A stretch of 64,000 nucleotides of DNA from Marsupella aquatica (GCA_973895155.1 OZ316894.1:9771440-9835439); one strand, 5' to 3'; shown: positions 1,998-56,457, counted from the stretch's first letter. The notes: generated by a model from the sequence alone, not told the origin. Made by a program: numbers and translations.

Positions 1998-3634
<1,637 letters not shown>

Positions 3635-14400: not shown

Positions 14401-15184
14401 GTTGTGATGAACGGTCAAGATTGATTCTCACTTTGATTATTTTGCCGAGGTTTTACTAACATAGAATTGACCAATCACATTTGGCTAATTAATCATAGGG
14501 TGGTTCTATAGTTTAGGAGGGAAGACTTAAATATTCTAGGAAGAAAGTATCTCTTAAATCCAATTTAGAGTCTTGAACATCAATGTCTTTTTAGATAAAA
14601 TTTTGAAATGTTTCAAAACCATATCATCTTAATATAGGTAAAAAGTAAGTTTTTTTTTTCCTTTCTTAGTGGGTCCAAGGCTTCAAAACATCCAACATGA
14701 TGGAGGAGGGGGCTTTATATAGTGAGATTGACCCCAAAACTTGAACCCCGGCTTTAACGGGGTTTTATAAAATAAAGGAGGTGGTGGAGGGATCTGCTCA
14801 ATGGAACCTTAAAATGAAAAGTTTTACTTGATGGGTTACTAGAGGCATAACTTAACATGGATGTGATGTAGAGCATTATATGCAGATGGTATATGAAAAT
14901 ATGGTCTAAATTAATGAGATCTAATCAAGACTAAAAGTGCTTGCATGGTAGCAGCTTAAGCACCAGAAGGCTAACAATCACCCAGGGGGTGCAACATCCT
15001 GTTGAGGGAATTACAGGCATTTAGTAGCTATTTCACTGCCTGGAAACTTGACTTGCTTTGGAAACACACCCAAAGATAGGCCACTAGGGATAACAGTACT
15101 CTACACTAGAGTAGGTGATCTGTGAAGTGCACTCATTAAGGTAAACAGGGTATTAATTACATGTAAATCAGAGGCAAAGCCAAC

Positions 15185-15295
15185 TGAGAGTCTGAATGGG
15201 GTCATTGTAGCGTGCGAGGAATGAGAGTCTGAATGGGGTCATTGTAGCGTGCGAGGAATGAGAGTCTGAATGGGGTCATTGTAGCGTGCGAGGAA
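15185..15295. repeat. 37-bp unit, three perfect tandem copies
   Basis: TGAGAGTCTGAATGGGGTCATTGTAGCGTGCGAGGAA at 15185, 15222 and 15259. Confidence 0.92.
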
Positions 15296-15589
15296 ACAGT
15301 AGAAATTTTCCTCGCATGAGCAAAAAGTTTACTCACATGACCCCTAATTTTTCTATATGCAATTGCCTCTCTAAGAGTAATCTGCTTGATAACATCCATT
15401 TTGGGGACTCCTCTTTATGCTAGCGATCTCGCTAGTCATCTGGGGTCATAAAAAACACACAAAAAATAGAAAAGGCAGCAAAAAGCAAAATAAATTTAAA
15501 ATCACAAGTACGTGTCTCGCTAACAATACTCCCCTTGCTAACAAAACTCATGTTTGCTCGCATTATAGAATACCTCATCTGAATGAAGG

Positions 15590-16890
15590 GTGTAACGTTG
15601 CCATAGTCTGCCTGGTGGCAAGTGGATACAAGCTGTAAGAATAAGGTAGGTAGGGTGTAATCTGGATGTAAACAGGATACTAATTACATGTAAATTAGAG
15701 GCAAACCCAAGGGTCCGGACACAGCCTGGTCAACCTTTCCATAATCTGTCTGGTGCAAGGTGGGAATGTATTAGGATGACCAATGTCTGGGCGGGGGTTA
15801 CAAGGCTATAACCCTGCGTCCGGATGTGAGAATTAGGTGACCATCGGCAGTTGGGAAGTGTTCCCATTCATACATTCAGGTAGCAAGGGCAAAGTCTAGA
15901 AGCCTGTCCTGACCTTGGTTAATGTACATAAATCCTGTCCGGAAAAAGATTACCCCAAGGTGTATTTGTGGCACTAGATTATCAGAAAAGGTCTGAGGTT
16001 CTAAAAATGGTTACCCACCTGATAACCTTAATTCTGTACAGAATTATGGGCTGTAAATTGAAGGAAAACTTGGTATAATATGGGTGTAAACAGTATATTA
16101 ATTATGTGTAGACTACAAGCCAGCCAAGAGACTGAACGCAGCCAAGTGTAACCTGCCATAATCAATCTGGCGCCAGGTGGAAACAATCTGTAACTGGTAA
16201 AAGGCTGTAACTGGGTGTAACAGGATTTTAATTACATGTAAATTAGAAGCCAGCCAAGTGTCCAGACACAGCCAGGGGGGTGTAACCTTGCCATCATGTG
16301 TCTAGCGCCAGGTGAAAGTGGGCTCTTAAAATAAGGTAAAAATGGTGTAATCTGGGTGCAAACAGGATATTAATAACATGTAAATTGGAAGCCAGCCAGG
16401 AGTCCAAACGCAGTTGGGCTGTAATATAAGGTAAACATGGTGTAATCTGGGTGGAAACAGGATATTAATGATATGTAAACTAGAAGCCAGCCAAGAGTCC
16501 AAACGCAGCTGGGCCGTTAAAATAAGGTAAACATGATGTAATCATGGTATAAAAAGGAGATTAATTATGTCTAAACTCAAGCCAGCCAAGGGTTCGAACG
16601 CAGCTGGGCCTTTATCCTAACCAGAAGGCGAAGTTACCACTGATAGTATATTTCATGTAAGCAAGTTCCGGAATAACATCTTTTGAATAAAATCCCGTTA
16701 AAAAGGAGAAACCAATTAAGGATAAGCTACCTATAAGCATCATAGCATAGGTAAAAGGTAACAAGGAAGCAAGCCCTCCCATCTTAATATAAGGTAAATG
16801 TGGTGTAATCTAGGTGTAAACAGGAGATTAATTACGTGTAATTTAGAAGCTAGCCAAGGGTCCGACTGTAACCTGCCGTAATCCGCCTGG
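15590..16890. repeat. Array of degenerate ~90-150-bp repeats directly upstream of beta-COP
   Basis: Recurring AATAAGGTAAA..GGTGTAATCTGGGTGTAAACAGGATATTAATTACATGTAAATTAGAAGCCAGCCAAG near 15640, 16070, 16200, 16330, 16420, 16520 and 16790; partial copy near 15140. Confidence 0.8.
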
Positions 16891-17204
16891 CCAGACAGAC
16901 CTCCGCGTCTCGGTCCATCGGTCGATCGATGGATCGACCGACCATGGAGCCCTCGTCCTCCTTCTGTGCTTTTCCTCCCCTGTTCCCTCGTGCTTTCTTC
17001 CTCGGGAGGAGGACGACCAGCTTCGAGCAGAATTGGGCGGAGGGTGTAGGGATCCCGCTTGGTGGTCGCTGGAGTAGACGTTCAAAGCGAAGAAGCTCGA
17101 GCAGGATTAGGATTTCACGAAGTTAGAACGTAGCTGGAGTGTTTGTGAGGATTTTGACAGGGAGTGAGGTCGAGAAAAGCGAGGGCAGCTTGCGAGGAGG
17201 CGCG

Positions 17205-20200
17205 ATGGAGAAAACTTGCACTCTGCTGGTGCACTTCGACAAGGGAACGCCGGCATTAGCGAACGAAATTAAGGAATGGCTGGAAGGGAGCGACACGGGG
17301 AAGAAGGTGGAGGCCATGAAGAAGGCGGTGATGTTGCTGCTCAATGGGGAGACTCTGCCGCAGCTCTTCATCACGATTGTGCGGTACGTGCTCCCGTCGA
17401 CGGATCATACGATCCAGAAGCTGCTCTTGCTTTACCTTGAGATCATTGATAAGACAGACGCGCAGGGGAAGATACTCCCGGAGATGATCCTGATCTGCCA
17501 GAATCTGAGGAACAACTTGCAGCATCCTAATGAGTACATCCGAGGTGCGACCTTACGGTTCCTGGCTAGGTTGAACGAGGCTGAGCTCATCGAGCCCTTG
17601 ATTCCTTCGATCTTATCAAATTTGGAACACCGGCACGCGTTCGTGAGGCGGAATGCTATATTGGCAATGACGGCCATTTACAAGCTGCCTCAGGGAGAGC
17701 ACATGCTCGTGGATGCCCCAGAGATGATAGAGAAGTCTCTGTCAGCTGAGCAAGATCTGTCGTCGAGGCGAAATGCGTTCCTGATGCTTTACCAATGCGC
17801 ACAGGACAGGGCCGTCAGCTACCTTCTGAGCCATCTCGAGAGCGTGGCCGGATGGGGGGACATTTTGCAAATGGTGGTTCTAGAGCTAGTCAGGAAGGTG
17901 TGCCGGACGAACCCTGCAGAAAAAGGGAAATACATCAAGATTATTATTTCTCTGCTCAACTCTCCGTCCCCCTCGGTCATGTACGAATGTGCTGGGACTT
18001 TGGTGTCTCTCTCATCGGCCCCCACAGCTATCAGAGCTGCTGCCAACACTTACTGCCAGTTGCTGCTTTCTCAAAGTGACAACAATGTGAAGCTCATAGT
18101 CCTGGATCGGTTGCAGGAGCTTAAGGTATCCCACAGGGAGGTTATGGTTGAGATGATTATGGATGTTCTGAGAGCCCTGTCGAGTCCCAATCTCGACATC
18201 AGGCGCAAAACGCTTGACATTGCCCTAGATCTGATCACCCCAAGGAACATTGATGAAGTGGTAATGACACTGAAGAAAGAAGTTGTGAAAACCCAGAGCA
18301 AGGAGCTCGAAAAGAATGGAGAATATCGTCAAATGCTCGTTCAGGCAATACATTCATGCGCTCTGAAGTTCCCCGAGGTGGCCAGCACTGTCGTGCATTT
18401 GTTGATGGATTTCTTGGGAGACTCCAACACCGCCTCCGCTGTGGATGTGGTTTTCTTCGTGAGGGAGATTATAGAGACAAACCCAAAGCTTCGAGAGTCA
18501 ATTATTGCGAGGCTTCTTGACACATTCTATCAGATCCGGTCTTCAAAGGTATGCACTTGTGCCCTATGGATCATTGGGGAGTACTGCCTGTCTTTGACAG
18601 AAGTGGAGGGTGGAATTTCGACCATTCAACAATCACTCGGCGAGCTTCCATTTTTCACAGTTGCTGAGGAAGGGGACTCGACTGAACAAGCAAGCGGTAA
18701 GAGCTCTACCACCCAGGGCTCTGCTCACCCACCGGCCGTGTCCTCTGCCTCATCTAAGCGGCCAGCTGTTCTCGCGGATGGAACTTATGCCAGTCAGAGT
18801 GCTGCTGCCGAGATCGCTGTTTCAGCACCCCTAAGTTCAGGTGCAACTGGAGCTACTGCCAATCTTAGAGCGATTGTATTAACCGGGGATTTCTTTCTGG
18901 GGGCCGTGATTGCCACCACATTGACAAAGCTGACGTTGCGGCTGTCTGAAGTGCAGCATCAAAAGACCGTTGTGAACAAGACTTCTGCAGAAGTTCTTCT
19001 CATTTTAGTGTCGATTCTTAGGTTAGGACAGTCTTCTGTCCTTCCTCACCCAATTGATGACGATTCTTACGATAGAATCACTCTCTGCGTCCGAATTCTG
19101 TCTAGCCCTGATGATGTCATGCGAACTGTGTGGCTTAAGTATTGTCGTGAGAGCTTTGTGAAGATGATCACAGAGAAACAGCACCGTGAGACAGAGGAGA
19201 GTAAGGCCAAAGCGCAGGTGAGTAATGCGCAGCCAGATGATCTCATCGACTTCCATCACTTAAAGAGCAGGAAGGTGAGCTACTCTGAACCGATTCCATC
19301 ATACACTTGGATGCTCTTGAACTTATCCCTCTATTTAAGTCTTGGACAATAAAAAAATTGGTAAGTTGGGCAGTGTGTTCAGCCGAATGCAATTATCTTC
19401 ATGGGATTAATGAAACGACGGGACCTTGAGGTTTTCTTTCATCGAGGTTGAAATTCCCAGTATGAGTTTGCAAGCCTAATGAATGTCTGGCGTGCATATC
19501 TAGGGAATGAGCCAATTGGAGTTGGAGGATGAGGTGCAGAATGACCTGAAGCGAGCTACTGGTGAGTTCACCAAAGATAGCGACAACACACGGAAGCTCA
19601 ATAGAGTACTTCAGCTTACTGGGTTTAGTGATCCGGTTTATGCTGAAGCTTACGTTACTGTTCATCAGTACGACATCGTCCTTGATGTCACTGTTGTCAA
19701 TCGCACCAATGAGACACTACAGAACTTGTGCCTTGAATTGGCCACAATGGGGGATTTGAAGCTAGTTGAACGGCCTCAGAACTACACGCTGGCTCCGGAG
19801 GCTAGCAAGCAGATTAGGGCAAATATAAAGGTTTCATCCACAGAAACTGGAGTTATATTCGGTAACATTGTTTATGAAACGACAAGTGTATTGGATCGCA
19901 ATGTGGTGGTGTTAAACGACATCCATATTGATATTATGGACTATATCTCTCCGGCTTCATGCCCGGATGTTTCTTTCAGAAATATGTGGGCTGAGTTCGA
20001 GTGGGAGAACAAGGTAACTATTTTCCTTAAGTCTGAAATTAGTTCTTTTACAGGTTCAGCTCGTGTTCAAGGTTTTGTGCTGGAGACCCTTGGTCTCAAA
20101 TCACAGTCGTCAACTGTTTTTGAGAGAGGGTTGTATGTCCTCGAAATCTTCAAGGCACTGTTTCAGAGGTTTGGAATATGTTCCGGAATTTGCCCAATAT

Positions 20201-20851
20201 GGATATTGGTTAATTTGCACAGTAAATGGTTGTCACAAAAATCATTAGTTCTAGAGTTCTCTAACGTGCTTTTCTTGTTTTGTTGTTGTCTAGGTGGCTG
20301 TCAATACATCAATTCAAGATGTAACAGAGTTTTTGAATCACATCGTAGCGTCGACCAACATGAAGTGTCTGACCCCTCTGTAAGTCTCTGGTCCCAGCCC
20401 TTGTGTGGTAGTTTAGTGGCACCTGGATTTTATGGTTTATGGCTGCAAAGCGAAATTCACGATCAGCTACTCAATCTCAATATGATCTTGATGCATGTTT
20501 TCCTCTGATGCATATGACCATGTGGTTGGCACGTTGATAACTCGGGAAGACGTTGCTGATCTTGTCTGGAACACGTTTTGTCTGTATAGTTTTGTCGTGA
20601 TCATGTTGGGATGCTTACAAGATCTGGAGACCGTTGCTTCTTATGAGTGCAGGTCTGCATTGGATGGCGAATGTGGATTCCTTGCAGCAAACCTTTATGC
20701 AAAGAGTGTGTTTGGAGAGGATGCTCTTGTCAATGTTAGTGTAGAGAAGCAACCAGATGGCAAGCTTAGTGGTTATATTCGCATTCGCAGCAAGACCCAG
20801 GGAATTGCTCTCAGTCTGGGTGACAAGATCACCCTCAAGCAAAAGGGCTAA
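17205..20851 (+). CDS. COPB1: Coatomer subunit beta (beta-COP); exons 17205-19274, 19504-20013, 20294-20379, 20653-20851
   Basis: [14 protein letters not shown] start, [58 protein letters not shown]|[36 protein letters not shown]. All three introns are GT..AG and phase-compatible. Confidence 0.97.
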
Positions 20852-23834: not shown

Positions 23835-24791
23835 CCCGGTTTGAGCTGTCGGACAACTTGTCGTGTTGTCGGACACGACAACTTGTCATTTGTCGCCCGA
23901 AAATGACCCTATTTGTCGCATATTCCTTCTTATGCCCCGGTCCGGCCCCGGCCCGGTCCGGCCCATTCCCTCCCCGACTCTTCCCGGCCCCTTCCATTCC
24001 CGGCTCGGTCCGGCACCCGGCTCGGCCCGGCCCCGCATCCCGCCCGGCCCCGCACCCGGCCCGGCCTCACAAACACTAGGTGAGGGCGGGCCGAGTGCGG
24101 GGCCGGGCGGGATGCGGGACCGGGCCGGGAAGGGGCAGGGCCGGGAAGGGAAGGGGCAGGGCCGGGAATGGAAGGGGCCGGGCCGGGAAGGGGCAGGGCC
24201 AGGAATGGAAGGGGCCGGGAATGGGAGGGGCCGGGCCGGGCCGGGAAGGGACCGGGCCGGGAAGGGGAAGGGACCGGGCGGGATATACACAGGGAAGGGG
24301 CAGGGCCGGGAAGGGGCAGGGCCGGGAATGGAAGGGGCCGGGAAGGGACCGGGCCGGGAAGGGACCGGGCGGGATATACACAGGGAAGGGCAGGGCCGGG
24401 AAGGGGCAGGGCCGGGAATGGAAGGGGCCAGGCCGGGAAGGGGCAGGGCCGGGAATGGAACGGGCCGGGAAGGGGCAGGGCCGGGAAGGGAAGGGGCCGG
24501 GCCGGGAAGGGAAGGGGCCGGGCCGGGAAGGGACCGGGCTGGGAAGGGGAAGGGACCCGGCCACATATACACAGGCCGGGAGAGGGGTGCCGATTCCAAA
24601 TACACGAGCCGGGCCGGGATTTTCTGGTCGCGGCGGGCCGGGCCGGGACGGAACCGGGTAACATTCCGGGGATAGTAGCCGGGCCGGGAATTACCGGCTG
24701 GGAGCCGGACCGGGGACCGGGGTGGACCGGGTGACAACTTGTCGGTTGTCGAGTCCAAAGGCCTCTATTTGTCGGACAAGTCCAAACCGGG
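23835..24791. mobile_element. Non-autonomous TIR DNA transposon, very GC-rich, 8-bp TSD (hAT-like TSD length)
   Basis: TTTTGGAT at 23827-23834 and 24792-24799. Ends CCCGGTTTG.. / ..CAAACCGGG with subterminal GACAACTTGTC palindromes. Interior of GGGCCGGGAAGGG repeats, with a C-rich arm at ~23935-24065 and a G-rich arm at ~24080-24730. Confidence 0.85.
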
Positions 24792-25084
24792 TTTTGGATG
24801 GTCTGGAGGTAGACTTCGTCGCCCTACGAAACACACAAGCAACAACCCAACACCCGGGAATCAACCCTGGTTCTTAATACAAAACAATCTAAAAAACAAA
24901 ACATAGCAAACACAGGGCTATGGTCCCACTACGGTATGGACCTGCACCACTTTGTCACAACTCTTGTTTTTGCTATGTACATTTCTCATAAGTTTCCAAT
25001 CCGATAAGGAATGAATGGGCTTTTCCCTCCCACCCTTTACTTGCATCCAGTTGCACGGCCGGGTATCCTGGGCAGAATCCCCCA

Positions 25085-28152: not shown

Positions 28153-28886
28153 CATTTCCATATACATAGATAACACCCTGCAATAGGTCTTATTTGTTCA
28201 CATGTTCGCTCTTCCATTGATTTGCAATGCAACCACATGAGTATACAGATACATATGAACATAGATATATTGACGCCATATGAACAATTTGGTTATCAAG
28301 CCTTTAGTAAAAACATTGACATAGGATTTCACATATGATAGCTATCAATATAGTTAAAGAACGTAAATTTCCTTTGTGACAGTAAAAGATTGCCCTTGCT
28401 TACAGGTTAGAATGCTTAGCTACGCTATTACCCAGGTGACACTACTTTGTGACTGGGTCTCTACTGGGTGATAGTATTACTCTGATTCTGTGTCCACAGC
28501 ATTCAACATATGCCATAATCCCTCTCCAGGAATAGACGGGCGATATCTATTCACACCTCCAGTGTCTTTGTTCAACCCCCGCCACTGGAGTGAGATCGTA
28601 TTTCAATCATATGATTTCGCGTCCCATGTTTCTGCAGCAATGTCTAGACGGCTGCGGGGAGACATGGGTCGGAAAGAGGCAAGCCACCACAGTTGTCTAT
28701 TTATTCTAAATTGTCATTTGTTCATACAGAGGCAACATTCAGACATCCAAGTAATTTTGCACAAACATTCTAGATATGCAGCTATGTGTCTACGATGTAG
28801 CACCTGAAGTGGTTGAGAGCTCATTGTGAGCACGAGCGATTGTCAGCTGGATGTTGGTGATTCAGTTGCTCGCTGCACGTTCTCCT

Positions 28887-29598
28887 TGTCGTGACATATA
28901 GTATCGTAGCCATAGTGTATCGAAAACATACAAGTCACCGGCAATGCATATGTGCAAGCTGCTAGCAACCAACATCCTGAGAAAAATTCCAATCACATTC
29001 ACAAGTGCCAAGAAAAAGCAACTGAGGTGGTATGTACGTAGTGGAGGTGTAAACCTCTGTATATAAAAGGCGTAAGAGAAACAATTGTACTGAAATTGAA
29101 TTGTAAACCGGCAGGATGCCAAGATCGGCCGGGAGCATCTAACGAATCACTGTGTGAATCCCGTGTACGGAACCGACGAGCACTGTCTGAGCTCTGTCAA
29201 CAGCGATTCAAGAAGAACTAAAAATGGCAAAGAAATACATGCCCTAAGTAGGACCGGGTCCAGGCGTCACACTAACAAACACCTTTGCTTCAAGAACGGC
29301 CCAGACTCGCTACAAGAACATGACACTAACTCAAGTAGTACACTAGCCCTAACTATATACCTAGCGGGCATGCGAGGGACATGCCGATGTGCACAAGAGG
29401 CACTGTCCCTCGGCATGACAGCTGTCGTGACATATAGTATCGTAGCCATAGTGTATCGAAAACATACAAGTCACCAGCAATGCATATGTGCAAGCTGCTA
29501 GCAACCAACATCCTGAGAAAAAGTCCAATCACATTCACAAGTGCCAAGAAATAGCAACTGAGGTGGTATGTACGTAGTGGAGGTGTAAACCTCTGTAT
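28887..29598 (-). repeat. 3' terminal repeat block A1-B1-GC-A2 (A 176 bp, B 358 bp)
   Basis: By eye, A1 vs A2 differ at about 3 positions and B1 vs B2 at about 7, mostly C/T or G/A transitions. Confidence 0.95.
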
Positions 29599-29605
29599 CC
29601 CCCCC
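29599..29605 (-). promoter_or_regulatory. Polypurine tract (G7) abutting repeat A2
   Basis: Minus strand TGGTCTGGGGGGG|ATACAGAGG, ~35 nt after the pol stop codon at 29638-29640. Confidence 0.7.
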
Positions 29606-29655
29606 AGACCACAGCCAAAAGGAGGGCTGAAGAAAATTCAGGTAGCACGTGGAGC

Positions 29656-29790
29656 ACAGGAAGGGCAAAACCATAACCCTTCTGGCACCTGGGTAAGTTC
29701 AGGCCGAAGGCAGAAAAGATGGTACCCTCCATTGCAATTGTCACACAGCAGCATCTGGTCAGCATCATCAATTCGCAAACACACTTTGCA
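29656..29790 (-). other. PHD finger at the integrase C-terminus
   Basis: CKVC-LRIDDADQMLL-CDNC-NGGY-HLFC-LRPELTQVPEGLWF-CPSC fits C4HC3 spacing with the conserved W before the last Cys pair. Confidence 0.92.
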
Positions 29791-32700
29791 AGGGTAGTCC
29801 ACAGGTGGAATCCAAGTAGAAGTCACAATGGTGGGATCCAGGTTAGGCAGATGACAAGGGGCGCAATTCTTGGCATTGTCAACAATTGTGCGCCCATCTG
29901 CCCCTTGTAACTCTAGCACTCCAGACGGTCGAATAGTTGTGACCCTGAGAATAGTGTGACTGGTAGAGGTGTCCAGGGTGTCGTTAGCTTGCCGCTGCAA
30001 GTACACAAAATCTCCCGCAAAATCTCCCACTTCAAACTTCCTGACCTTGGGCTGAAAAGTGCCCCCTCGTGTGTGTGCATAACGCAGTGTGTCCCTGTGC
30101 TGGGCAATGGCCAAATTCTCCATGGCCATGGGCATAACCCTCCTGAATAGGGCAGCCCTCTCAAAGATCACATCAGACCAAGTCACAGCTGAATCCAAGT
30201 CTACCACCTGAAGCATGTGAGAAGCAATAGCAGAAGGTGGAACTGGGTGACGACCAAACAACAAGAAGTAGGGAGAAAAGTTAGACAGTGATGCATGTCT
30301 GGACATCCTATACCCCATGGCAATGTAGGGTAAGGCCAGGTCCCAATCCTCCTTGTTTTTGGTGAGGCAGATCTTTCGAAGGCCCTTCTTGCATGTCTGA
30401 ACCATGCGCTCTGCCAAGCCATCTGCCTGTGGGTGATCTCGTGATGTCCGGCGATGATCAATGAGAGCCTGATCAAGCAGCTCCTGGAACTCTCCTCTAA
30501 ACTCTGAGCCCTGGTCAATGAGACATTCTGCACAAGTTCCAAAGCGGCTGAGAACTTGTTGTAGGAATGCCTGGCTGGTGCTACGGGAGGTCTTATCCGA
30601 CAATGCCACAAGTTCTATCCACTTGGAGAAATGCTCTATCATGATCATGATGTAGAGATTACCCCGTGATCTCTACCCGGTGTGAGATGTGAGGGGTAAT
30701 TCTCCAGCCAAATCACATGACCAATGATAAAACATGCCCTGAATAGGGAGTGGATGAAGTGTGGGTTGCCGAGATGTGAAAGAAGTCCTTACCCTATCAC
30801 ACTGCTCACACCGGGCAATAACATCTCGAACCTGGCCATGCATGCCTCTCCAATGATAATGGGGGACCAAGAGGCTATAAGTCCTCTTAACACCAAAATG
30901 ACCAAGCTCAGAATGTACCTTACGGATAAGGCCAACGCTCTCATGAATGGGTGGAACCACCACTTCCCTGTCTGGCAAGCAGCGCACAAGATGATCTCCC
31001 TTCCACAAGTAGCGCTTGGACCTTTGCTGAATTCGGTCTCTCTGGGCAGCAGTAACATGGGTGGGGTACTCCCCATGCTGCAGAAATCTCAAAGTGTCGC
31101 TGTCCTCCCATATGTCCACCACAGGTTGGTCAACGATGTAGCATGGCAGCAAAGCAAGATAGGTAGATGCATGAAATGTAGGCAGGATGGAAACCTGGTC
31201 AAAATCCTGCCGTGCATCTGAGGGATCATCAGAGGCAATCAAAGGGCTGCGGGACATAGTGTCAGCATTTTGATGTGTCACACCAGGCCTATGAATTATC
31301 TCAAAATCATACTCCTGGAGTATGAGTGCCCAACGAGCAAGCTTGCCAGTAAGCTTGTCGTTGGTCATCAACCACTTCAAGGGCTGGTGGTCGGTGTAGA
31401 GAACAAACCTGGTCCCATAGAGGTAGGGCCTATAATGTATGACAGCCCACACAACAGCAAGGCATTCACCCTCATAAGAAGAATAATGACTCTCTGCCTG
31501 ATTGTTGCTCTTGGATGCATAGGCAATGACGTACTCTTTACCTTCCTCATCATGTTGGCCCAGAATGGCACCAATCCCAAGGGCACTCCAATCTGTGTGT
31601 AGCACAAAGACCTTGCTGAAATCAGGTCTTCTCAGCACCAGGTATTCTGAGAGCTTCTCCTTCAAAGTGGCAAATGCTGCCTCAGCATCTGTACTCTATG
31701 TCCAAGTCACATTCTTTTTCAACAAAGCATACAATGGGTGTGCAATGGTACTGAAATCTTTGATGTAGATCCGGTAGTAATTGCACAACCCAATAAAACT
31801 CCTCAAAGTGTGAACATCGGTAGGAGTGGGCATTTCCAAGATGGATACCACCTTGGCCCAGTGAGCCATGGTTCCATTTGGAAGAATGCGATGCCCAAGA
31901 TATACTACTGATCTGACAGCAAATTCACACTTCTTGGGGTGTATCTTTAGGTTCACCTTCTTAAGCCTCATGAATAGCTCCTCAAGGTCAAGTAGATGCT
32001 GGTCAAATCCTTTGCTGTGGACCAACACATCATCAATGTAGCATTTCAGAAACTCAGCACCTTGAAGAACCTGGTCCATGACTCTTTAATTGAAAGAATA
32101 TGGGCGCATTCTTCAAGCCAAATGGCATCACCAACCACTCCCATAGTTGGTTACTACCATGGAAAGTTGTTTTCTTGCGGTCCTTTGCAAGCAGCAAAAT
32201 CTGGTTGAAGCCTTGCCTTAGATCCACAAGAGTGAAGATGTCTGAGTCTCCAATGCTGTCAAATAGCTCCTCTGGCCGCGGCATGGGGTACCTGTCCTGG
32301 GGTGTGACCAGGTTCAATGGCCTGTAGTCCCCACACATGCGCTTCTCTGTCCACAATCCACTGGAATCCTTCTTTGCTGGCATCACTGTAGGTGCCACAA
32401 AATCTGATGTAGATGGCTGAATAAGACCAGCTTCATAAAGCTCTTGACACCTCTCATCCACCAGCTGCCACTCATGCTTACTCAAACGGTGTCTCCGCCT
32501 GAAGATAGGTGTTTCATCAGCCAACTCAATGGAGAACTGCATAGTCTTGCACTTACCCAAGTCCTTCATAGAGAAAGCAAAGTGACACATTCTCATGCTT
32601 GAGGAGCAAATTCAGCAGCTGGTCCTTCTGTCTTTTACTCAGGTGGTTGCCCGTGATAAATGTGTAGTTGGCAACACTAGGAATAGGACCTGATGTACTC

Positions 32701-32999
32701 GTGCTTGAAGAGCCAGAAGTGCCAGCCTCTCCACTGTCCAAGCTGCTAGCATGCTGCTGATAAGGTGATGAGGCCTCTCCAAGGCCTGTTGTACCTGCTG
32801 ATCCGAAGTGGTCCACACCATGAAACTCAGAAATAATGTCAGCCGCATTACAAGGGACCTCCTCCCCCCCAACACTTGGACTGAAGTGGTGAGTGTTGGA
32901 CAGAGGTAAGTGCACCTGGTCTGGATGCCACGCAGCAGCACTGTGGAGTGGTAGGGCTGGAGCTCCTAATGCTGGAGGAATGTACATCTGAAAAAGGAT

Positions 33000-33955
33000 G
33001 CAAGTGACCAGAAGCCAAGTGAGAGCATTGAGATCCATTACCCTGCCAAGTAAAGCATTCCTGGCCAGCCTGGTGATTTTGGTGTGACCTGTAGTACCGG
33101 GTTGGAAGCCCATAGCCCATTCTCTCTCCTCAGGACTAGGTTCATCCCATGTACCGGTAGAATGTTGATAAACCAGACCAGGACCATCACCCTGAAAAGC
33201 ATGTGCACCTGGAAAGGACACAAATGTAGGCCAAGCAGCACGGGGTTGTCCAATGGTATTGGCTGGATACCAAGGTGCTGGCTCTTGCCGTGTAACTGGT
33301 TGGCAAGAACTGTCAGGATCCAAAATCTGGTCCACTATGAGGTTAGTATCCCTGGATGTGTGGTGAATCTGAGCTAACTCCAACAAGGAAGGTGGTGCAA
33401 GGTTAGTCCAAAAGTTACGAAGACGATGTGCATAAGAACCACAATGCACTGCATCAATGAGAAGGGGTGGTCCCAAGTAGTGCTGGACCACACTGAAATC
33501 CTCTTTGACCTGTGGACGCTGGTCAAACTGAGATGGAGTATTCTCAATGATATAACCAACAGCAGGATAAAGGGATTGAGTCCAGGTGAGAGTCTGAACC
33601 AATGCTGTGAAAAGGCCAGAACGAGAATCATGCAGCCCAACACCGTGACCAGCAGCTGAAAACCCTTGGCATTCCCAACCAGCTATGATCAAATCAAGGG
33701 AGCCAAGAAGGGTTAAGTGCCGATGCTGGACAAGCTGGATATCTGGAGGAAAGAAAGAAAATGCAGACTTCCATGCACTGTGTGGAAACTGCTGGGGAAA
33801 TCGCTCTGAAAATTCCAGCAGACGAGATTCAGCCACTTGCCTTGCACCTGGATCAATATCCACATAGATGTACTGCTTCACCACCATGCCAAACTTTAGG
33901 AGAGCTTCCAGGCCTGTAGAAATGCCACCAAAAAGCTCAAGCAATGTAAGGCCAT
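33000..33955 (-). other. C5 cytosine DNA methyltransferase domain (DNMT3-like, unpermuted) inside Pol
   Basis: Motif I LELFGGIS, II YVDID, III DIQLV, IV IAGWECQGFS, V DSRSGLF, VI IIENT, VIII AHRLRNFWTN, IX EEREWAMGF, X RNALLGR, all in order in ORF 32553-34154. Confidence 0.9.
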
Positions 33956-36900
33956 CTGAAGGAGGAGTCCATGTAACTGGTGCGCTCAAGATTGGGGCTA
34001 TTGGTTGTCCATTATGCTGCCCAAGGTCCTCAAATTTGTGCAATGCAGCCACCAAAGGTCCATGGGCTGCTTGGAGCCGTTGTACCACCTCTGGTTGATG
34101 ATCCACGTTGCTGGAAAGTGCTGCTATACGTGCAGCAGCATGTGCAGTAGCCACCTCATCATCATCCTTCTCAATCCAATCCTACAATGGGTGGTTGACA
34201 TAGGTAGCTGTGTGCACTTCTTTCAACACACAGTGGTGAGCCATAGGTGTATGGACACCATGCAAATCAAGTGGAATGTAGCCCAAGTGTGAGCCATCCG
34301 TATGCCAATCAACTCTGTAGTATGCATGCTCATGCCAGTTGTCAATGGTAAAACCTGGTGGGAACAAAGCCTCCTGGCCAATGAGCACATCATACGTAGT
34401 GGCATTGGTAACCAAACATCTGACTAGGAAATGTAGTTCCTGATCTGTACCTCCATTAAAAGTGAGAGTGAGTAAAGTAGAACTCTCACCCACCACATCC
34501 TCCACAGTGCCACTAGCAGTCTGAATGTGCCACCTGGATATATTGCTGTAAATGATCAGTCAGCAGTCCCATCTTCTTGGCAAACTGAATGCCCAAGATT
34601 ACTGGTTGAGCGCCTGTGTCTAGCATGACCACCTGAGGAGTGTGACCCTCCAACTTGACTGCTGAATTCCTGTTGTCAACAATGGCAATGGTGGTGGAAA
34701 CTAAAATCCTATCACTAGGCACCACTTTTGGCAAATGATGAGGTACCTTGTGAAGGGAGTTAGTGTCCATGGTCTTCCCACTCAACAGCATAGCCAAGAA
34801 AGATGGAGTAGCGTGACCAGAATCAAGTGTAGCTCTGGTCACACAATCTGCAGCAATATTATCATCTCTACCACTAGAAATCGGTACTGGGATGGCCAAA
34901 CCAGTGGAAGCATGCAATGGAGAAGAAGAAGGTCCAGTATTTACATGAGATTGGACCTCCAAAACCGGTGTCACAGGGGCTGATGAAGAATGCAGTGAGC
35001 CCTCTAGCACTCTGATGACAGCTCTAGCATCTAGCTGTAAATCATGGCAATTGAAAAGTGGAGTGGTAAGAATCCTTTGTGCCATACCGGAGGTGAAATG
35101 CTCAAGCAGCTCAGGAAAAACAACTCCCTGTGAAATGTCAGCAGCACCTGGTGGTGGAATGGATGTAGCTACAGCTCCCTCCCCCCTCGCCAACAAGGTG
35201 CGCTCTTCAGCAAGTGTGAGTGGCTGAAAAGATTGGGGCATGACAACCCGAGCTCCCCTGGCTCTAGTCATAGGACCAGTAGCAAGACCATCAGCCTGTA
35301 CAATGCGGCGTGTGGGAGCAATACGGGAGGCAGCACTGGCCTGCTGGTAAGCAAAATAGGAAGGGCAGAATGAATCTGAAAATTCTGTTGTAAGGCCAGG
35401 CTGTGTAGCAGAGGACAGCACACACTCACCCATATGAGCATCAAATGGCAAGCCATAGAAAGAGCGGGGTATGGGTGCTGAACTGTCAGTGGTGCTTGGG
35501 CCAGGGATGGGTTGCACGTGACCAGCCGGTTGAGAAGGACCAGCAGAGGCAGTGAACTTGCCTTTGATGTTGGCAAGTTGGGCACGTAATGACTCAACCT
35601 CATGAGTCAGAGACTGGAGTTGAGTTGCCTGTGCGTTGTGAGCCTCCTTCTGAGCTGGTTGCTTCTGTTGCTGCTTGGGCAATTTGTTAGCACTGGAGGC
35701 TTTGCCACTGGAAGGAGGAGCAACTGATGCAGTAGGAGCCCTCCTAGCTAGTGGGGGAGTGGAAATAGGAGTAGGATGAGTGGCCTGCTGTCGTAGCTGC
35801 TTCCTCTCGGGGAATTTGGCAAAACAAACTGCCTCCAAGTGGCCCACTTTCCCGCAAAAATCACAAGACAGGTCCTCAGCAACAATATCATATTCATTAG
35901 CCTTGTGATTAGGGTTACCACAGTAGTTGCAAGATGGCAGCATGAAAGCAGCATGTGCTGGCTTGGTCTTGGAACCATACTGTGGCACATGGGGAGGAGT
36001 GGCCAGTGTAGGGGCAGCAGCCTGGTACCTGGATCGCGGTGGACGCGCAATACTGGCCTCATAATGTGCATGGGGCCAACTCAAGTTTCTCAGCAGTGTC
36101 ATAGACATTGAGCAAGGTGTAGCTGTCTCCAAACTCTGAGAATACTTGCTGCAACACTTGCAAATGGAGAGCTGGTGTGCCCTCCAATACGCGAAGATAG
36201 CGATGAGCAGCTTCCAGGTCAGTGATGCTCTGGGTGTCCTCCTTCAGCTTGAGAAGCCGGCGATACATCATCTTCAATGTTTCATCGCGCTGCCTCACAA
36301 AGGTGGCCAACTGCATGATTTTATCAGCACTCTTGATTGGGAATTCCAATTCAAGAACCTGGAAAAACTCAACCACTAGATCAGTGAAGGCAGGAGAATC
36401 AATGGTGGGAGAAATTGTCTGATGTAGCCTGTGCCAAGACAGTGGGAGTAACTGGCGCAGTGGTGGGAACTGGAGTAGGAGGGGAAGTGGTAGGAGCAGC
36501 AGCATGGGCTGCAATGGCATTCTGTAAGGCCAATTGTGAGGCTGCCACAATTGCACTGGCATAGGTAGGGTTAGGCAACTGTGTGACAGCAAGCAGCCGT
36601 TGAGAGTGCTGCTCATACACATCCAAAGCCTCATGGTGCACATACCTAGCTAGCTGCTTAAATGCAAAAGCATTTGTGAAATTGCTACCATACTTCAACT
36701 CCAATTCATAAACGACAGTGTAGAAAGTGGATTTGAACTCGCGTAAAGAGACAGTGCCTGGCCGACCGCTGAAGCGCTCAATGCGGCCAGATGAGTGGCT
36801 GGACTCCATGCTGTATGTCGGTGAAGCAGGAACAACCACTGATGCAGAAGGAGTAAATGGCAATGAAGTGATAGCAGGCTTCGGAGTAGTGGTGAAGCGC

Positions 36901-37975
36901 CCGCCAAATGTAGCAGAAGGATTGCGTGGTGTGGGTGCTGTTGCTGTCTGCTGACGTCGTCGAAATTGCAGAAATTGCCGAGATTCGGGCTCTCCTTGCT
37001 CTCCTTGCTCTCCTGCCTGGAAATCTACTCCTGAGAGGAGGGAATCGCTCCCCCCCTCCCCTCTTTTAATGTTGTATTGGGCTTCGTGCCCTCTCCTGGC
37101 AGTCGCTCCCCCTCCTCCCTGCTTTAATTCTCCATAGGCCTCCGTGCCTGGCAGAAGACTCCTGAGGGAAGGAGTCGTATGGACTCCCCCCCTCCATTTA
37201 ATGTAGCATAGGGCCTCGTGCCCACTCCTTGCTTGGCTGCCTCAGTTCTGTCTCCCTGCTTTCGCTTGTGCTTGGCTGCCCCTCCCCTGCTTTAATACTG
37301 CCTAGGGCCTCGTGCCCTCGTTTCGCTTCCCCTCCCCTCCTCTAATGCCCTGTAAGTTGGGCCTCGTGCTTGGCAGGACTCCCGAGGGGAGTCGACGTGA
37401 ACTCCCCCTCCCTCTTCAATTCTTCATAGGGCCTCGTGCCCTCGGTTCTCGCTCCCTCTCCCTTGTTTAATTGCAACGGCAGGAAGCTGGCAGCGGCATC
37501 GGGAAACGGCGAGGCAAAAGAGTGAGGCGAGATGAAGCAAAAATGGCCGGGAAAGGGAGAAGTGCCGAGGGGAGTCACTTGGCCGAGAACGTAAGGATGT
37601 AATAGGGGCTCGGTCCTATGCAGTCGCAAGGTAGTCGCGAGGTGGCCGAGGCAAACTCGCCGGCAGCCGTGGCCGGAAATGCAAAAATGACCCCAAAAGC
37701 AGTCGAGCAGTCGACAGCAGCAGGTCGGCAGCAATCGGCAGCGACAGTAAGAAGGAGCAAAGGAGTCGCGGGTGCAACCAGAAAAGGAACTCCGGACCCC
37801 TCGGGAGCATTGATATGTGTATACACTTAAGTATACACATAACAACATAAATCCATAACTTTCAGCTCGTCGCTCCGATGTTCGTAGAAGAAATTGCAAT
37901 GACTTCACCAGAAATTATCGAACCCGCCACAAGCAATCTTCTTCCCCTCACTGCCATCTCAAGAGTTCTTCTTGA

Positions 37976-38333
37976 ATAAAAGGTGTAAGAGAAACAATTG
38001 TACTGAAATCGAATCGTAAACCGGCAGGATGCCAAGATCGGCCGGGAGCATCTAACGAATCACTGTGTGAATCCCGTGTACGGAACCGACGAGCACTGTC
38101 TGAGCTCTGTCAACAGCGATTCAAGAAGAACTAAAAATGGCAAAGAAAAACATGCCCTAAGTAGGACCGGGTCTAGGCGTCACACTAACAAACACCTTTG
38201 CTTCAAGAACGGCCCAGACTCGCTACAAGAACATGACACTAACTCAAGTAGTACACTAGCCCTAACTATATACCTAGCGGGCATGCGAGGGACATGTCGA
38301 TGTGCACAAGAGGCACTGTCCCTCAGCATGACA
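37976..38333 (-). repeat. 5' terminal repeat B2 (half LTR) with TATA-like box
   Basis: Near-identical to 29063-29420. Minus strand starts TGTCATG; TATATA at ~38267-38272. Confidence 0.93.
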
Positions 38334-40530
38334 TCCTGCCAGTGCGTCGATCCTTTGCCCCTCACGAGCTGCTTGCCCTTTGTGCTGCCTGCTAGTGTTG
38401 CACAATATTCATGCTGCCATACGTTGTTGTTTCTCTGGTGAGTCCTTGTGTCTTTGTATACTGCAGGCATGTGGATCATATAGAATATTTTTGGCTATTG
38501 CTGCGGATGGCAGTGCCACTATGTTGGGTCATACTTTAGGGCAATCTTTTGAGGTTGCCTTATGCATAGATGGCCCGATATTCTGTGGATGGATCAACGG
38601 TTGAGATGGTAGTCATAGTATAGCGGGAAGCTTTTTGGGCATTGGTTCTGGATATTATGTACATGGTATCCTATGTTGTATACATATATCATATGTTTTA
38701 GGTATCATGTCTTTTGTATCATGCAGCTTTGTCTTTTGTATGTCCTCCTTGTTGAGGAAATGCATATTCATGCTAATGCTGATCCCGAGGCTGATGCTCT
38801 CCTCGTCAGCTTATTCTTTTGAGAGAGAGAGAGAGAGAGAGAGAGAGTGTTTGGACCATGGAACTATGATGATATGTACTTTTTGTGTTCATAGTTGAGC
38901 TCTTGGTGCGGTCGTGGACATAGCCCTGAGATGGTGAACCACATATCTTTGTGTCGGTGTGCTAGAGTGTTGAATGAGTGATAATTGTGAGACGTCATGC
39001 TGTCCGTTTTGATCCTACAAGATCTTAGCTACTTGGTGTTGGCCCAAAGTTGTTCAGTTTTCTTCACTATTTTCCTTGTACATTTAGCTAGAGGTAGCAC
39101 ACCTTGGAAAATTTATGCCAAAAAAAACACACTCCTTATGTGCGAGGACCCCGGTTTGGCCTTGACGGGCAAGTCAGCGGTCTGGACCCCCTCACCTGTC
39201 ACTCCGAACACCCGATCGTCCCGACCGCCTGGTCGCAACCTCGCCCCGACCCCACCCCAACGCCCCAACCCCAAACCGGGGGAGCCCAGGACTGGGCCGG
39301 GAAGTGGTTTGGGCGGGGAAGTGGTTTGGGGACCGGCCCGGGAATAAAGACAAATATGTGCCATTTTGCCCCTTTTTGATGAGTTTATACTTGGCCCGGC
39401 AGCTCAACGGGGGCCAGGACAATTGAGAAGACATAATAATGTTGTGGAGTAATATATGGTGGGGCTGAAGTAAAAGCCCTCAAAGTCACTCAGACGACAA
39501 CCACCCTCTTTGAACGGCAGTCACGCATCTCAAGCCACATTCAGGGGCGCATTCCACTAATTGAAAGCTCGATATCTGAACTCTGGATCCACGGACTGGT
39601 TGGTTAATTAATTGGGTTGTTCGATTGCTGTACAGTGGAGGGATGGTGAGAATGATGGTCGGATTGGATGGATATTTTTAGCGTTAACAGTGAACCTGCC
39701 CAAGTCTACCGAGCGATTCCAATGAGTGTCGGTGCTTGCATGCCGCATTACTAAACTTACGTATTGGGCAAGTCAACTTAGTTGTAGCTACAGGAAAATT
39801 GTCGATCACTGAGGTGAAGTTGCTGAGTAACTCCATGAATCACCCCGAAGCAATTTCCAATTGACGTTTTTAATTAGAAGGAGACTGGTTCGAGACTTTC
39901 GGCTTGCAAAAAGGTTCTGTCATTGACACTTGACAGTCGAATGGGGGCCCTCAAACGCAATCCTTTCCAGCTCTCCTCATTCATTTTCTCCAGCTGAGTG
40001 TCGCTGGCCTTCTCTTTTGTTGGTTTCTCAGTTTATCTTTCTCTCACTTGTAAAGTTGCTCAAGCACGCAACCTGACAACATCCAGTCGTTCGTGCTCGA
40101 TCAGTCAAGAATGTATGGATATATTCTATCATCCAGTCAGTACCAGCTGGATTGCTCTTTATTTCTTAGATTGTTAGCTAGCATTGTGTGAATTGCTGTT
40201 CTTGCTACAGTTTTGATTCATAGTTACAGATTTGCAAGTTTCTGAGGGCTGCTCGGGCCAATTAATCCCATTGTACGTCGATCATCCAGTGACTTGCAAA
40301 CCCATTCTTATCGATTGACTAGACTCGTTAATTAACCAAAATTTGGCATGACTGAGCTGAAGAAGCGTCCTTCGGGAAGGACGGTCGGGTTGAGTGACTC
40401 GAAAGCTGGCTGGAATGTACAGGCACCATCATGGATGGATAGTTTCTCTGTTAATTTACTACTGTGAAATCCCTTTCTCGAACTTCTTGTGGGCCCCTGG
40501 GGAAGGGAAAGGCGAGGAGTCAATACGCTT

Positions 40531-41313: not shown

Positions 41314-44300
41314 ATGAACAAACAACAGAAAACCAAAACGCTATCTTTAGGAAGACTAGCAACGCTGAGCACAATCAAGGAGAATCTGAGGGTCAAGACC
41401 ACGTTCCAAAAGAATGAGTTACCGCCGCCTTCTCCGAACGTACTCCTAAGTCGGCATCCCAACCATTTGAGTGGCTCAGGAGATACGGATTCAGCTCCCT
41501 TGCTCTTCAGTGCCATTTCTAGTTACAAGCCAGAGAAATCACCACGAGGTGCACGAGGAGCTGCAACTTTCGAGGACGACCACGACAGCTCAAATTTTCC
41601 TTCACTTAGACAACCTCCGCATTTAGAAACCAATGGAAGGCGAACTGAGGCACCAGCGGGCCATCACGGTCAATTGCTGACTTCCCCAAGAGGAGGAGAC
41701 AATGTACCTGATGGTCAACAGCAGCAATGCGCAGAAGATTCCGTGCCTGAACTCTTTCCACCGAAGCTACATCGATTGTTTCGCAGCAGTAGTGGGTCGA
41801 AAACTCTACAGCTAGAGCCTGTCACTGAAGCGGACCAGGAGGAGGAGGCTGATGGTCCGGAAGATGCAGACCATGAAAGGTTGCAATTATCAGTGAGGGG
41901 GATTCGTGAGGAAACCTTTTCCCGTACTTCTTTCAGATCCTCTGGTGATGGAGACGATTTTGGGGACCTGCACACGGAGGAGGATTCGGAGGACGAAGAG
42001 TACTGGTCAGTTCCTCCGACAGTCTCCGGCCTTGCAATCGACAGACGAGACCTTGCTACAGGTGGGAGATTCAAATGAGGCCCATACCTTACACCTTATT
42101 AATTTATTCATGCTGGTCTTTCCGTCACCTCTCTCTTCAAAAGAAAGGCCGGAGGTTCTTTCTAAATTCTGAAGGAATGTGATTCAAGAGTGAATGAATT
42201 GCAAGGGATAAATATCGGGCGGTGAGACCAGAAGTTTACATGATCAGAGAGTAAGAGAGAGAGACGGCCAAATATAGGCGTGCCATTCTATCTGGTTGAC
42301 GATCGTTTCGATTCAATTTGAACTTTGGATCCGTATCAGGGGTCCACAGGCAGTGGTTTTACCCCCTAATCACGAGAAATAGCACTGACTAAGTTATTCA
42401 GCTTTCGGCCTTAAAATGAATGTCTTAGCTACAGTTGCTTCTCCGTCTGTCCACAGATGAACTCTTCCATGGCAGACTTAGAAAGGTTTTGAGAACTGAA
42501 ATCACCGTAGGTAGCCCTGTTTTGTTTGATGTCTCTGTGTCAGCACCAACTTTTGTATCACGAGACTTCATCATTTGATCATACCAGTCTTATTCAGATC
42601 GACTTTGTGATGGCTGAGACGATGGCCGGTGCTCAATTTATGTTCTGAGCTGCACATACAAAACAGGTTTCCGTAGGATAGTTCTTTAGGTTTCCAATCT
42701 TAAATTTGGTCGACGTGGGCTGTGATACCAGAGGCAATGTTGGACTGGCTGTTCTAAACAGCTGGCTCCTCTTCGTTCCTGTGTAATCTGTGAATTTCGG
42801 ACGGCTGTGTACTTCAGATACCACTATATCACTTAATTAAATCCTCGCCCAGTGCTTTGTGACCCACAGTCAAGTTCGTTTGGGTGAATTCTTGCATTTT
42901 AAGATATCAGGCGTCTGAATGTGCAACAATTGTACCAATTTGAAATCCATGCGCAGGGGACAAATGGGTACCTCGCCATCCGGACCTGGTGCGGGTGAAA
43001 GGCTACCACCCATTCATCGCCGAGGCCCCGCTAACAACTCTCATGCATTTCGGCTTCTTGACCCCCACATCGCTCCACTTTGTGCAAAACCATGGGCCTG
43101 TCCCGCACGCAGCCTGGGACAATTGGACCGTGGAGGTCACAGGCCTCGTCACAACTCCCAAGACATTCACCATGCGAGACCTCCTTCTCTTTCAGCCAAG
43201 GCGTCTCCCTGTGACGCTAATGAGCTCTGGCAACCGAGGCAAGGAGCTCAGCCGGGTGGGCTCAAGCAAGGAGGTGGAGGGACTCAATTGGGGGCCAGGA
43301 GCTGTGAGTACATCTGTCTGGGGAGGTGCGAGACTACGAGATTTGCTCCGCAGTTGTGGGATTGCTGTTAGTAGGGCTAAGGGCCAGAAGAAGGGAGCCT
43401 CAAGGAGACAGTGTTACGTGAGATTTCTGGGTGCCGACAGATACGGCACAAGTATCCCTTTAGACGTCGCCCTGGATCAGAGCAGGGACGTCTTGGTGGC
43501 TTATGAGCAGAACATGGACCTCTTGACGCCAGACCAAGGGTTTCCTGTGAGGCTGATCGTGCCCGGGTTCGCAGAAGGAAGGAGTGTAAAGTGGCTTCAC
43601 AGGATTGAGATCTCTGATCAAGACTCGGATAATGACTACCACGCTCTTGAGAACCGAATGCTGCCGTCTCACATTGAGGATCTCGAAACTGCACTTTCTG
43701 ACGGTCTGTAAATTTCTCGTCAATTTTCCAAAGTGACATCTGAGATTTCCAATTCAACCACAGAGAGTTCAAAATCAGACCACCTAATGAGTAGTACCGA
43801 AAGAAATACTGCTTTTATTCACACGACTCGTTCGAAAGATGTGGTCGATTATGACTTGACTCTTTGTCTGCCAAACTTGTGATAGCAGGATGGATGAGGA
43901 GGCCTGAGTTCATGGTCAATGATATGAATGTGACCTCTGTAATTTCTTGGCCAGCTCATAACAGCAACATCTTATCCGCCAGCCCTTCAAATCCCATGAA
44001 GGAATATTCTATCAGAGGCTATGCTTATTGTGGTAAGCACACTCTCGAAATCATCTCTAACGTGGTAACTGTGGTGATTAAATGTTCATTTTCCTGGCCG
44101 ACAATGTGGTGCTCGTTGACCAGTGATACAATTCGCTGATAACGTCATACCATTTTAAACCTTCTCGAGCTTGTTTAGTTCATATAATAGTCCCATCAGC
44201 CAACTTAGATCGTTTGATTAGGTGCGCATCTCACCTAAAAATTCTTTTCTATTAAGCCATCGCTCTGAAGTGGGTTCTATTACTTCTTTCTGCCACGACG

Positions 44301-56030: not shown

Positions 56031-56457
56031 AAACTAATAATACAAAAACAAATGTATGGGAGTATGATTCGAGGAGAAAGGCTTTTAGCGTGGATAAAGG
56101 TTTTCAGTTCGTGTAGAGTTTACAGTGGCAGTGGGTTAGTTTAGTGTTTTTTCTGTTTCCGCCTTTTAGGGTGGCAGCGCAGCGCAGGCGCGCACCGACT
56201 AGATTCGGGCGGGGGCTGGTCTGGCCCGTGGTCTGGGCCCTGGCCACTGGGCACTGGCCGCCTGGCCTGCGCGCCTCCTGGCCTGGCCACCGGCGTGACA
56301 GAAGGAGGACGCGAGCGAAAAAGTTGGCCAGACCAGAGCGACGACCAGACCCCTTTTCGCACAAATTCATCACTCACACATTCGTAAAATGAAGCCTATG
56401 GTGTAGGCTTAGGACAATGTGTAGCCTCGAATCCAAGCAATGCTTTGACCTGGGTAA

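Follow-up and report, generated by a model that had tools for sequence, protein, structure and literature searches.

Split repeats, a DDE integrase and an internal attachment palindrome in a Ty3/Gypsy retrotransposon from Marsupella aquatica and its relatives

Introduction

The DNA analyzed here, a stretch of 64,000 nucleotides from Marsupella aquatica (OZ316894.1 of assembly GCA_973895155.1, positions 9771440-9835439; called the window in the following, with positions counted from its first letter), contains at 28887-38333 a broken, dead copy of a green-lineage Ty3/Gypsy retrotransposon. The canonical structure, i.e., two complete direct long terminal repeats (LTRs) with a primer binding site (PBS) after the CA of the 5' LTR as well as a polypurine tract (PPT) before the TG of the 3' LTR, is not found: the element is Ty3/Gypsy by protein descent, not by canonical structure. 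The locus raises the question of how a DDE integrase can insert an element whose attachment ends appear to lie inside the LTR made by reverse transcription. We consider it very likely that the answer has a core shared by several mechanisms, namely an attachment palindrome internal to the LTR and a joining of the reverse transcription ends that takes place in every cycle. The initial annotation of the window had proposed that a 2-LTR circle is opened at this site, which is weighed here against its alternatives.

Results

Order, ends and repeats of the element

The element is 9,447 bp long with minus-strand sense, begins with TGTCA and ends with GACA. In sense direction it reads B2-coding-PPT-A2-GC-B1-A1, which on the plus strand gives the order TCCT, A1, B1, GC, A2, C7, coding region, B2, TCCT. 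The copies of each repeat align without gaps and differ at 3/176 (A1 vs. A2) and 7/358 positions (B1 vs. B2), so a single read set assembled twice does not account for the repeat blocks. A search of the rest of the window revealed no further piece of the element's family. The relevant features are as follows (TSD, target-site duplication).

28883-28886, no strand: left TSD copy, TCCT on the plus strand; a single TCCT is present in the pre-insertion joint
28887-29062, minus: repeat A1, 176 bp; sense end of the element (..GACA) and integrase end; starts with TG on the plus strand
29063-29420, minus: repeat B1, 358 bp; sense 3' end fused to the start of A1 at 29063/29062; ends with CA on the plus strand
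29414-29429, no strand: internal palindromic attachment site around CA-GC-TG, uncut copy; loose contig ends at 29420/29423; kept in distant relatives
29417-29426: palindrome core GACAGCTGTC
29421-29422: GC spacer
29423-29598, minus: repeat A2, 176 bp; directly after the PPT; start of the LTR A-GC-B predicted from reverse transcription (29598-29063)
29599-29605, minus: PPT, G7 (C7 on the plus strand); abuts A2
37964-37977, minus: PBS of self-priming type, 14 nt; overlaps the end of B2 by 2 nt
37976-38333, minus: repeat B2, 358 bp; sense start of the element (TGTCA..) and integrase end
38119-38132, minus: predicted RNA 5' end (putative transcription start) and, within B2, the self-primer; fully complementary to the PBS; equivalent stretch in B1 at 29206-29219
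38334-38337, no strand: right TSD copy, TCCT

Contigs of four public sequencing runs from two studies (X1-X4; short contigs, none of those listed spanning the element) were aligned to the locus. One contig of X1 joins 28887 to 38339 and skips 9,451 bases, i.e., the 9,447 of the element plus 4, and two further runs carry a similar flank-to-flank joint. The skipping contig is either an empty allele or an uninterrupted copy (paralogue) of the flanking repeat; under either source, a single TCCT was present before insertion. The order, the exact TG..CA ends and the 4-bp TSD (TCCT) flanking the element, as initially annotated, are thus borne out by the coordinates and by the pre-insertion joint. The left flank (28624-28886) is covered at about 10x the depth of single-copy contigs further left, such that the element probably landed in another repeat.

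The same runs inform about the element's own family. Within 29030-29700 and among the six rows listed per run, loose ends with mixed flanks are located before 29423 in 10, 18, 13 and 15 contigs of X1-X4, respectively. Behind 29420, X2, X3 and X4 show such ends in 12, 9 and 13 contigs, with none listed for X1; the flanking sequences at these ends agree to only 0.39-0.45. Loose ends before 29063 carry PBS sequence. In an ordinary LTR the CA end would be connected to the PPT; such a link is absent from the 14 joints listed.

Priming and the predicted LTR

The initial annotation had placed a PBS-like site next to B2. Such a site is present; it is of self-priming type, 14 nt long and overlaps B2 rather than abutting it. 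Its complement is a stretch 202 nt into B, and a perfect pairing of 14 nt was reached by 0/5000 shuffles, which would match self-priming of the Tf1 type. The complementarity of primer and PBS is kept despite changed sequences in the window copy, L004, L074, L076, L081 and L084. A TATA-like box about 30 nt upstream often accompanies the pairing in relatives, but not in the window copy.

Given a PPT that abuts A and a self-primer PBS at the end of B2, the LTR made by reverse transcription is predicted to be A-GC-B, with a U3 region that would extend through A and GC up to nt 201 of B. Linear complementary DNA (cDNA) with such LTRs would lack TG..CA ends, and its sole integrase-type ends would be those of the palindrome inside U3. 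This agrees with the earlier claim of attachment ends inside an A-GC-B LTR, for which the positions of PPT and PBS as well as the loose ends at 29420/29423 speak.

Related insertions

A scan of metagenome contigs provided 410 matching loci, 80 of which were kept. Among these, 73 are close (integrase 64-82% identical) and represent a second, related family, and 65 of the 73 have a complete A after the integrase, corresponding to 45 distinct insertions (L008, L020, L022, L023, L036, L038, L053 and L079 were dropped for an incomplete A). Five groups (L032, L037, L040, L052, L060) were reassigned from A-flank to A-xx-B-A by inspection, while L059/L063 and L028/L029 were merged by eye. At their 3' ends, 16 of the 45 insertions read A-xx-B-A and 27 read A-flank, which the initial annotation had not foreseen; of the remaining two, one breaks off within A1 where its contig stops, and the other has B joined to other DNA. 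Both ends are visible for 13 insertions, i.e., 8 of the form B-int-A-xx-B-A (int, internal coding part) and 5 of the form B-int-A. Their TSDs are all mutually different: 9 are exact 4-bp duplications, 3 are off by one transition and 1 is ambiguous. That is, independent insertions share the layout with different TSDs, as the initial annotation expected, and the TSDs match in 12/13 cases.

Copies with ordinary LTRs, which would have spoken against this layout, are not among the 45 distinct insertions, and TGTCA directly after the G-run occurs in 0/91 sequences. Instead, ATACA follows the G-run in 58/73 close loci and a near variant in 8, while 7 lack the G-run or the sequence. The spacer between CA and TG reads GC, GT, AC or AT, and once AGC; we infer that these variants fit deamination of GC.

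The palindrome extends to more distant loci (integrase identity 45-57%). In 8/9 of them, GACAG(C/T)TGTCA is located 56-148 nt past the G-run, for which the frequency in shuffles is 0.0035 or lower at each locus; the ninth contig stops inside the motif. This count leaves out L075, L078, L080, L085 and L086, which end soon after the integrase; L088-L090 are likewise distant and outside the palindrome scoring, L090 being the single distant locus from the viral collection. The distant locus L082 reads A-GC-B-A-flank.

Named sequences closely related to the element are found in Calypogeia, Marchantia, Coleochaete, Klebsormidium, Closterium and chlorophytes. A quick tree was calculated from RNase H-zinc domain segments, with few outgroups and without named REXdb lineages; it unites the distant loci, the window element and these green-lineage proteins in a single group (Shimodaira-Hasegawa-like approximate likelihood ratio test, SH-aLRT, 95). 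Two Klebsormidium nitens proteins, not identified as KnitGypsy-Dnmt3, fall into the clade of the window element, next to the palindrome-bearing L077. L081, L082 and L083-L087 were found in records of prokaryote metagenome-assembled genomes and yet group with algal and plant retrotransposons, so their placement there is probably due to binning contamination. At L002:1805-1929, A continues directly from its CA end into the interior of a reversed B, which is either an insertion into the LTR of another copy or an autointegration.

The B|A joint

We compared the joint between the end of B and the start of A for 19 distinct copies. Blunt joints were found in 6 copies and a 2-nt AT overlap in 8; two joints lack 1 or 3 nt, two show larger deletions and one continues into other DNA. 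Given the overlap between primer and B end, the small joint classes can also be read as 1-3 retained primer-derived bases. The PPT-A boundary, on the other hand, is uniform across the same 19 copies. In the window element, we take the fusion at 29063/29062 to be an end-to-end join of both reverse transcription ends.

On a tree of 18 copies, blunt and overlap joints require 5 changes (4 of them forced by starred branches) vs. 4.2-4.3 for shuffled labels, and the sister copies L003 and L026 carry different joints. That is, the joint type does not cluster on the tree; it is not inherited but remade in each cycle. A1 and A2 of the same copy share minority letters 90 times vs. 48.5 times in shuffles (p = 0.0002), their distance is 0.102 within a copy vs. 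0.136 to the A1 of other copies, and no fixed A1/A2 difference was found across the copies compared. Thus, a single template seems to give rise to both A1 and A2 in each cycle; their likeness could be increased further by gene conversion. In L028 (3986-5156, also in L029), the end of B is fused precisely, in place of A, to an inverted segment from within the element. This junction reflects either end-joining of a free reverse transcription end or a shared assembly chimera.

Coding region and integrase

Stops and frameshifts split the coding region into several open reading frame (ORF) pieces. Pfam yields the domain order protease (PR), cytosine methyltransferase (DNMT), reverse transcriptase (RT), RNase H (RH), H2C2, rve, PHD:

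29638-30672, minus: integrase core D..D-34-E and C-terminal PHD finger, ORF piece (rve E 6.7e-11, PHD E 4.4e-12)
30673-31695, minus: RNase H and HHCC zinc domain of the integrase, ORF piece (PF17917 E 8.6e-39, PF17921 E 2.6e-13)
31696-32611, minus: reverse transcriptase, two ORF pieces at 31696-32085 and 32054-32611 (PF00078 E 4.7e-12 and 6.1e-10)
32553-34181, minus: C5 cytosine methyltransferase domain, ORF piece (PF00145 E 9.9e-6)
34182-36243, minus: aspartic protease and cysteine-rich gag-like knuckles, ORF pieces (PF13650 E 6e-4, weak, below the Pfam cut-off)
36059-37241, minus: gag-like N-terminal ORF pieces; no Pfam match, by eye like the first ORF of the intact relative L081
37040-37461, minus: degenerate short repeats in the 5' region (repeat families D3, D5)

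Methyltransferase and PHD finger were absent from the initial annotation. Relatives carry a C5 methyltransferase within RT-IN-PHD polyproteins (IN, integrase), and the best PDB match of L081 is Ty3 Gag-Pol (E 6.7e-100). No chromodomain match was obtained for the window copy, L074 or L081, the PHD finger being positioned after the integrase instead.

HHCC and DDE motifs were both found in the integrase, whose core belongs to PF00665. The second D and the E are separated by 34 residues in the window copy, not by the 35 initially annotated. The same spacing is found in 83/84 scorable relatives vs. 35 residues in three outgroup Gypsy proteins; 36/120 sequences did not match the spacing pattern and were left unscored. 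In the loop ahead of its catalytic E, the window integrase has TSRDHP vs. YHP or FHP in the outgroup proteins, and this aromatic residue is mostly lost across the clade of the window element. The altered loop is possibly linked to a changed DNA substrate. In line with the initial annotation, which saw no tyrosine recombinase, neither PF00589 nor a related Pfam family matches any of 36 ORFs (10 from the window element, 26 from L074 and L081; some short ORFs left out).

Both intact relatives contain one in-frame TAG between methyltransferase and reverse transcriptase (L081:3489-3491, L074:5083-5085), followed by CAA or CAG. Viral UAG-CAR read-through signals resemble this arrangement, and the TAG is possibly such a signal.

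Other features of the window

The neighboring host genes are eukaryotic and, according to Pfam, encode an NAD-dependent epimerase (1998-3634), an Adaptin_N protein (17127-20508) and a molybdopterin oxidoreductase (42944-43711). The epimerase is presumably akin to UDP-sulfoquinovose synthase and the Adaptin_N protein to coatomer beta. A DDE_Tnp_4 transposase piece (59566-60294, plus strand) faces a Myb/SANT-like ORF (60938-61540, minus strand), a pairing typical of PIF/Harbinger DNA transposons. An ORF of 296 aa without Pfam match is located at 10545-11435 (plus strand). Degenerate tandem-repeat tracts occupy 15141-16891, 23845-24823, 54957-56084 and 61596-62072; the one at 23845-24823 is GC-rich and open in five frames.

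Discussion

Proposed mechanism

Copies end at the palindrome and carry TSDs, the palindrome is conserved, the PPT and PBS boundaries are uniform, and the B|A joint is variable and not inherited. To explain how this comes about, we lean slightly towards the simplest route, in which the cDNA ends are joined into a 2-LTR circle that the element's own DDE integrase opens at the internal palindrome and inserts. The RNA would start about 200 nt into B2, prime itself as Tf1 does and end in B1, as its sequence suggests. Established reverse transcription chemistry, applied to the given PPT and PBS, would then produce a linear (A-GC-B)-int-(A-GC-B) molecule whose ends are not integrase substrates. By joining the end of B to the start of A, a step that would leave the variable joint observed, this molecule would become a 2-LTR circle; such circles arise by non-homologous end-joining (PMC7197481). 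The integrase would cut both strands of one palindrome after CA, namely in the PBS-side LTR, which is consistent with the observed end positions. Internal cleavage of LTR-junction palindromes is described for the integrases of HIV-1 and foamy virus (PMC1905944, PMC1180852). As in normal 3' processing, 2-nt 5' overhangs would remain after the cut, and the insertion would result in a 4-bp TSD and the order B-int-A-GC-B-A.

Since the latter form keeps the R repeat, it would be the propagating one. Copies of the form B-int-A, on the other hand, may derive from 1-LTR circles, from cutting at both sites or from later A/A recombination, and are predicted to be sterile without a 3' R repeat. Recombination as well as assembly collapse are possible sources of such copies. 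That they are mostly older recombination products is not supported: integrase identity to the window element, a rough proxy of decay, has a median of 76 (n = 27) vs. 73 (n = 17; p = 0.73). Which palindrome is cut is possibly decided by the element's own methyltransferase or by the order of LTR synthesis.

Several points weigh against the circle. Every step between RNA and insertion is reconstructed from sequence, and in several old or decayed copies the best pairing of primer and PBS covers only 8-13 nt or lies elsewhere. A symmetric circle with two identical sites predicts equal numbers of both mirror isomers, but B-A-GC-B-int-A was found 0 times vs. 8 copies of the observed form (0.5^8 = 0.004 if unbiased), such that a bias is needed that the circle leaves unexplained. 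An upstream A is also missing from all 5 B-int-A copies whose 5' end is visible. Given that 27/45 3' ends lack B-A, joined 2-LTR products are not the majority route. The metagenome contigs may stem from short-read assembly, in which young A-B-A blocks collapse. Integration of retroviruses from 2-LTR circles was reportedly proposed by Panganiban and Temin in 1984 and later set aside. Linear DNA is now the accepted retroviral precursor and the circle-precursor model is overturned (PMC11054761). As for the initially proposed opening of a 2-LTR circle at CA-GC-TG, the B|A joint behaves like a fresh end-join in each copy, and the lacking mirror isomer speaks against a symmetric circle; the join may take place before integration, after it or by a jump during reverse transcription.

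Alternative explanations

The final order could also arise without any circle. If the integrase cuts the left-LTR palindrome of linear cDNA and inserts both new ends, host repair may afterwards join the free end of B to the start of A, which yields the identical order and a variable joint. The left LTR is finished first in reverse transcription, which could explain why the mirror isomer is absent, and the precise joining of a B end to inverted internal DNA in L028/L029 fits such repair as well. Each productive insertion would, however, carry a chromosome break, and the loss of at most 3 nt at 16/19 joints suits, if weakly, a joining of protected ends instead; we regard this course of events as unlikely. 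Rather improbable in our view is a jump during reverse transcription, i.e., that the 3' end of the plus strand moves to the other cDNA end via the 2-nt AT overlap and recopies A-GC, whereupon the integrase uses the first and last palindromes of the extended linear molecule. End-to-end clamping is known for the Tf1 reverse transcriptase, AT is shared at 8/19 joints, and a one-way jump would account for the absent mirror isomer. Nevertheless, the 6 blunt joints and the 2 larger deletions (one with microhomology) resemble host end-joining, for which 2-nt microhomology is common too.

Both explanations keep the joining in every cycle, which is dispensable if the RNA extends through A1 and each daughter takes over its parent's B|A joint, with the split repeats as template. 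In favor of this, the layout corresponds to the A1-B1-A2-B2 split direct repeats of PAT and Ngaro elements (PMC4157794); yet the unclustered joint types (at least 4 changes forced by starred branches), the different joints of the sisters L003 and L026 and the likeness of A1 and A2 within a copy without fixed differences largely refute an inherited joint, and we hold it to be very improbable. Even less credence is given to an ordinary LTR element altered by a one-off rearrangement, nested insertion, autointegration or misassembly, and to integration by a tyrosine recombinase. The short contigs that make up the sequence support of the locus would fit a one-off event or an assembly error, but 16 distinct insertions from another family show the layout as well, distant relatives contain the palindrome, the repeat copies differ, TSDs are present, and the 36 ORFs lack a Pfam match to tyrosine recombinases. 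Autointegration was rejected because it gives scattered junctions according to the cited text (PMC7197481).

Relation to known systems

The initial annotation left it open whether such an arrangement had been described. The layout is in print: de Mendoza et al. (2018) state in the legend of Fig. 4c that KnitGypsy-Dnmt3, an element of Klebsormidium nitens, combines DIRS-like repeats with Gypsy domains (PMC5890265), without a mechanism. Like the window element, KnitGypsy-Dnmt3 has a cytosine methyltransferase in its Gypsy pol and, following the legend, A-coding-B-A-B repeats. In the parts of this paper considered, no attachment site, priming mode or mechanism is named, PHD is absent from the main text, and the host differs from that of the window copy. 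Within the literature searched, i.e., apart from Repbase and subscription journals, no explanation of the split layout was found and the name KnitGypsy appears in this one paper only; the passages considered of PMC9940879, PMC6338049 and bioRxiv 10.64898/2026.05.21.726589 contain no such layout. The internal attachment site is well supported, and a circular substrate is likely, if unproven.

With Ty3/Gypsy elements, including the self-priming Tf1/Sushi and Tcn1, the window element shares the PR-RT-RH-IN order, the PPT, the 4-bp TSD and TG..CA ends, and its PBS, complementary to the predicted RNA 5' end, would correspond to that of the self-priming groups (PMC6317226, PMC4600332). It differs by lacking a full LTR at both ends, by integrase ends internal to the predicted LTR and by D-34-E, and from the chromoviruses Tf1/Sushi/Tcn1 also by a PHD finger after the integrase and no chromodomain match. 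PAT, Toc, Kangaroo, Ngaro and VIPER have their split direct repeats in the same order and likewise contain the end junction a second time internally (PMC4157794), whereas the window element has a DDE integrase, a Ty3-type reverse transcriptase and a 4-bp TSD, and no tyrosine recombinase was found. Cleavage at retroviral 2-LTR junctions is alike in that a DDE integrase cuts a CA..TG palindrome inside continuous DNA (PMC1180852, PMC1905944). In retroviruses, however, the palindrome is made by the circle junction, while the window element has it, including a 2-bp spacer, as part of the U3 template; here the end-join lies elsewhere and is no attachment site, and every copy observed ends at the palindrome.

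Implications

For the clade as a whole, we see about even chances for a far-reaching reading: in an ancient group spanning chlorophytes, charophytes and bryophytes, the attachment sites would have shifted from the cDNA ends to a templated U3 palindrome, and propagation would proceed only via a 2-LTR circle opened by the D-34-E integrase in the manner of a restriction enzyme, i.e., by a natural and obligate circle-based DDE integration. LTR finders that need two full LTRs, e.g., the pipeline behind REXdb (PMC6317226), would miss such a family. Split direct repeats can arise without a tyrosine recombinase. The clade leaves a genomic record of an internal palindrome used by the integrase and of reverse transcription ends joined afresh in each copy, and, with relatives in Marchantia, Klebsormidium and chlorophytes, the old question of integration from circles becomes testable in tractable hosts.

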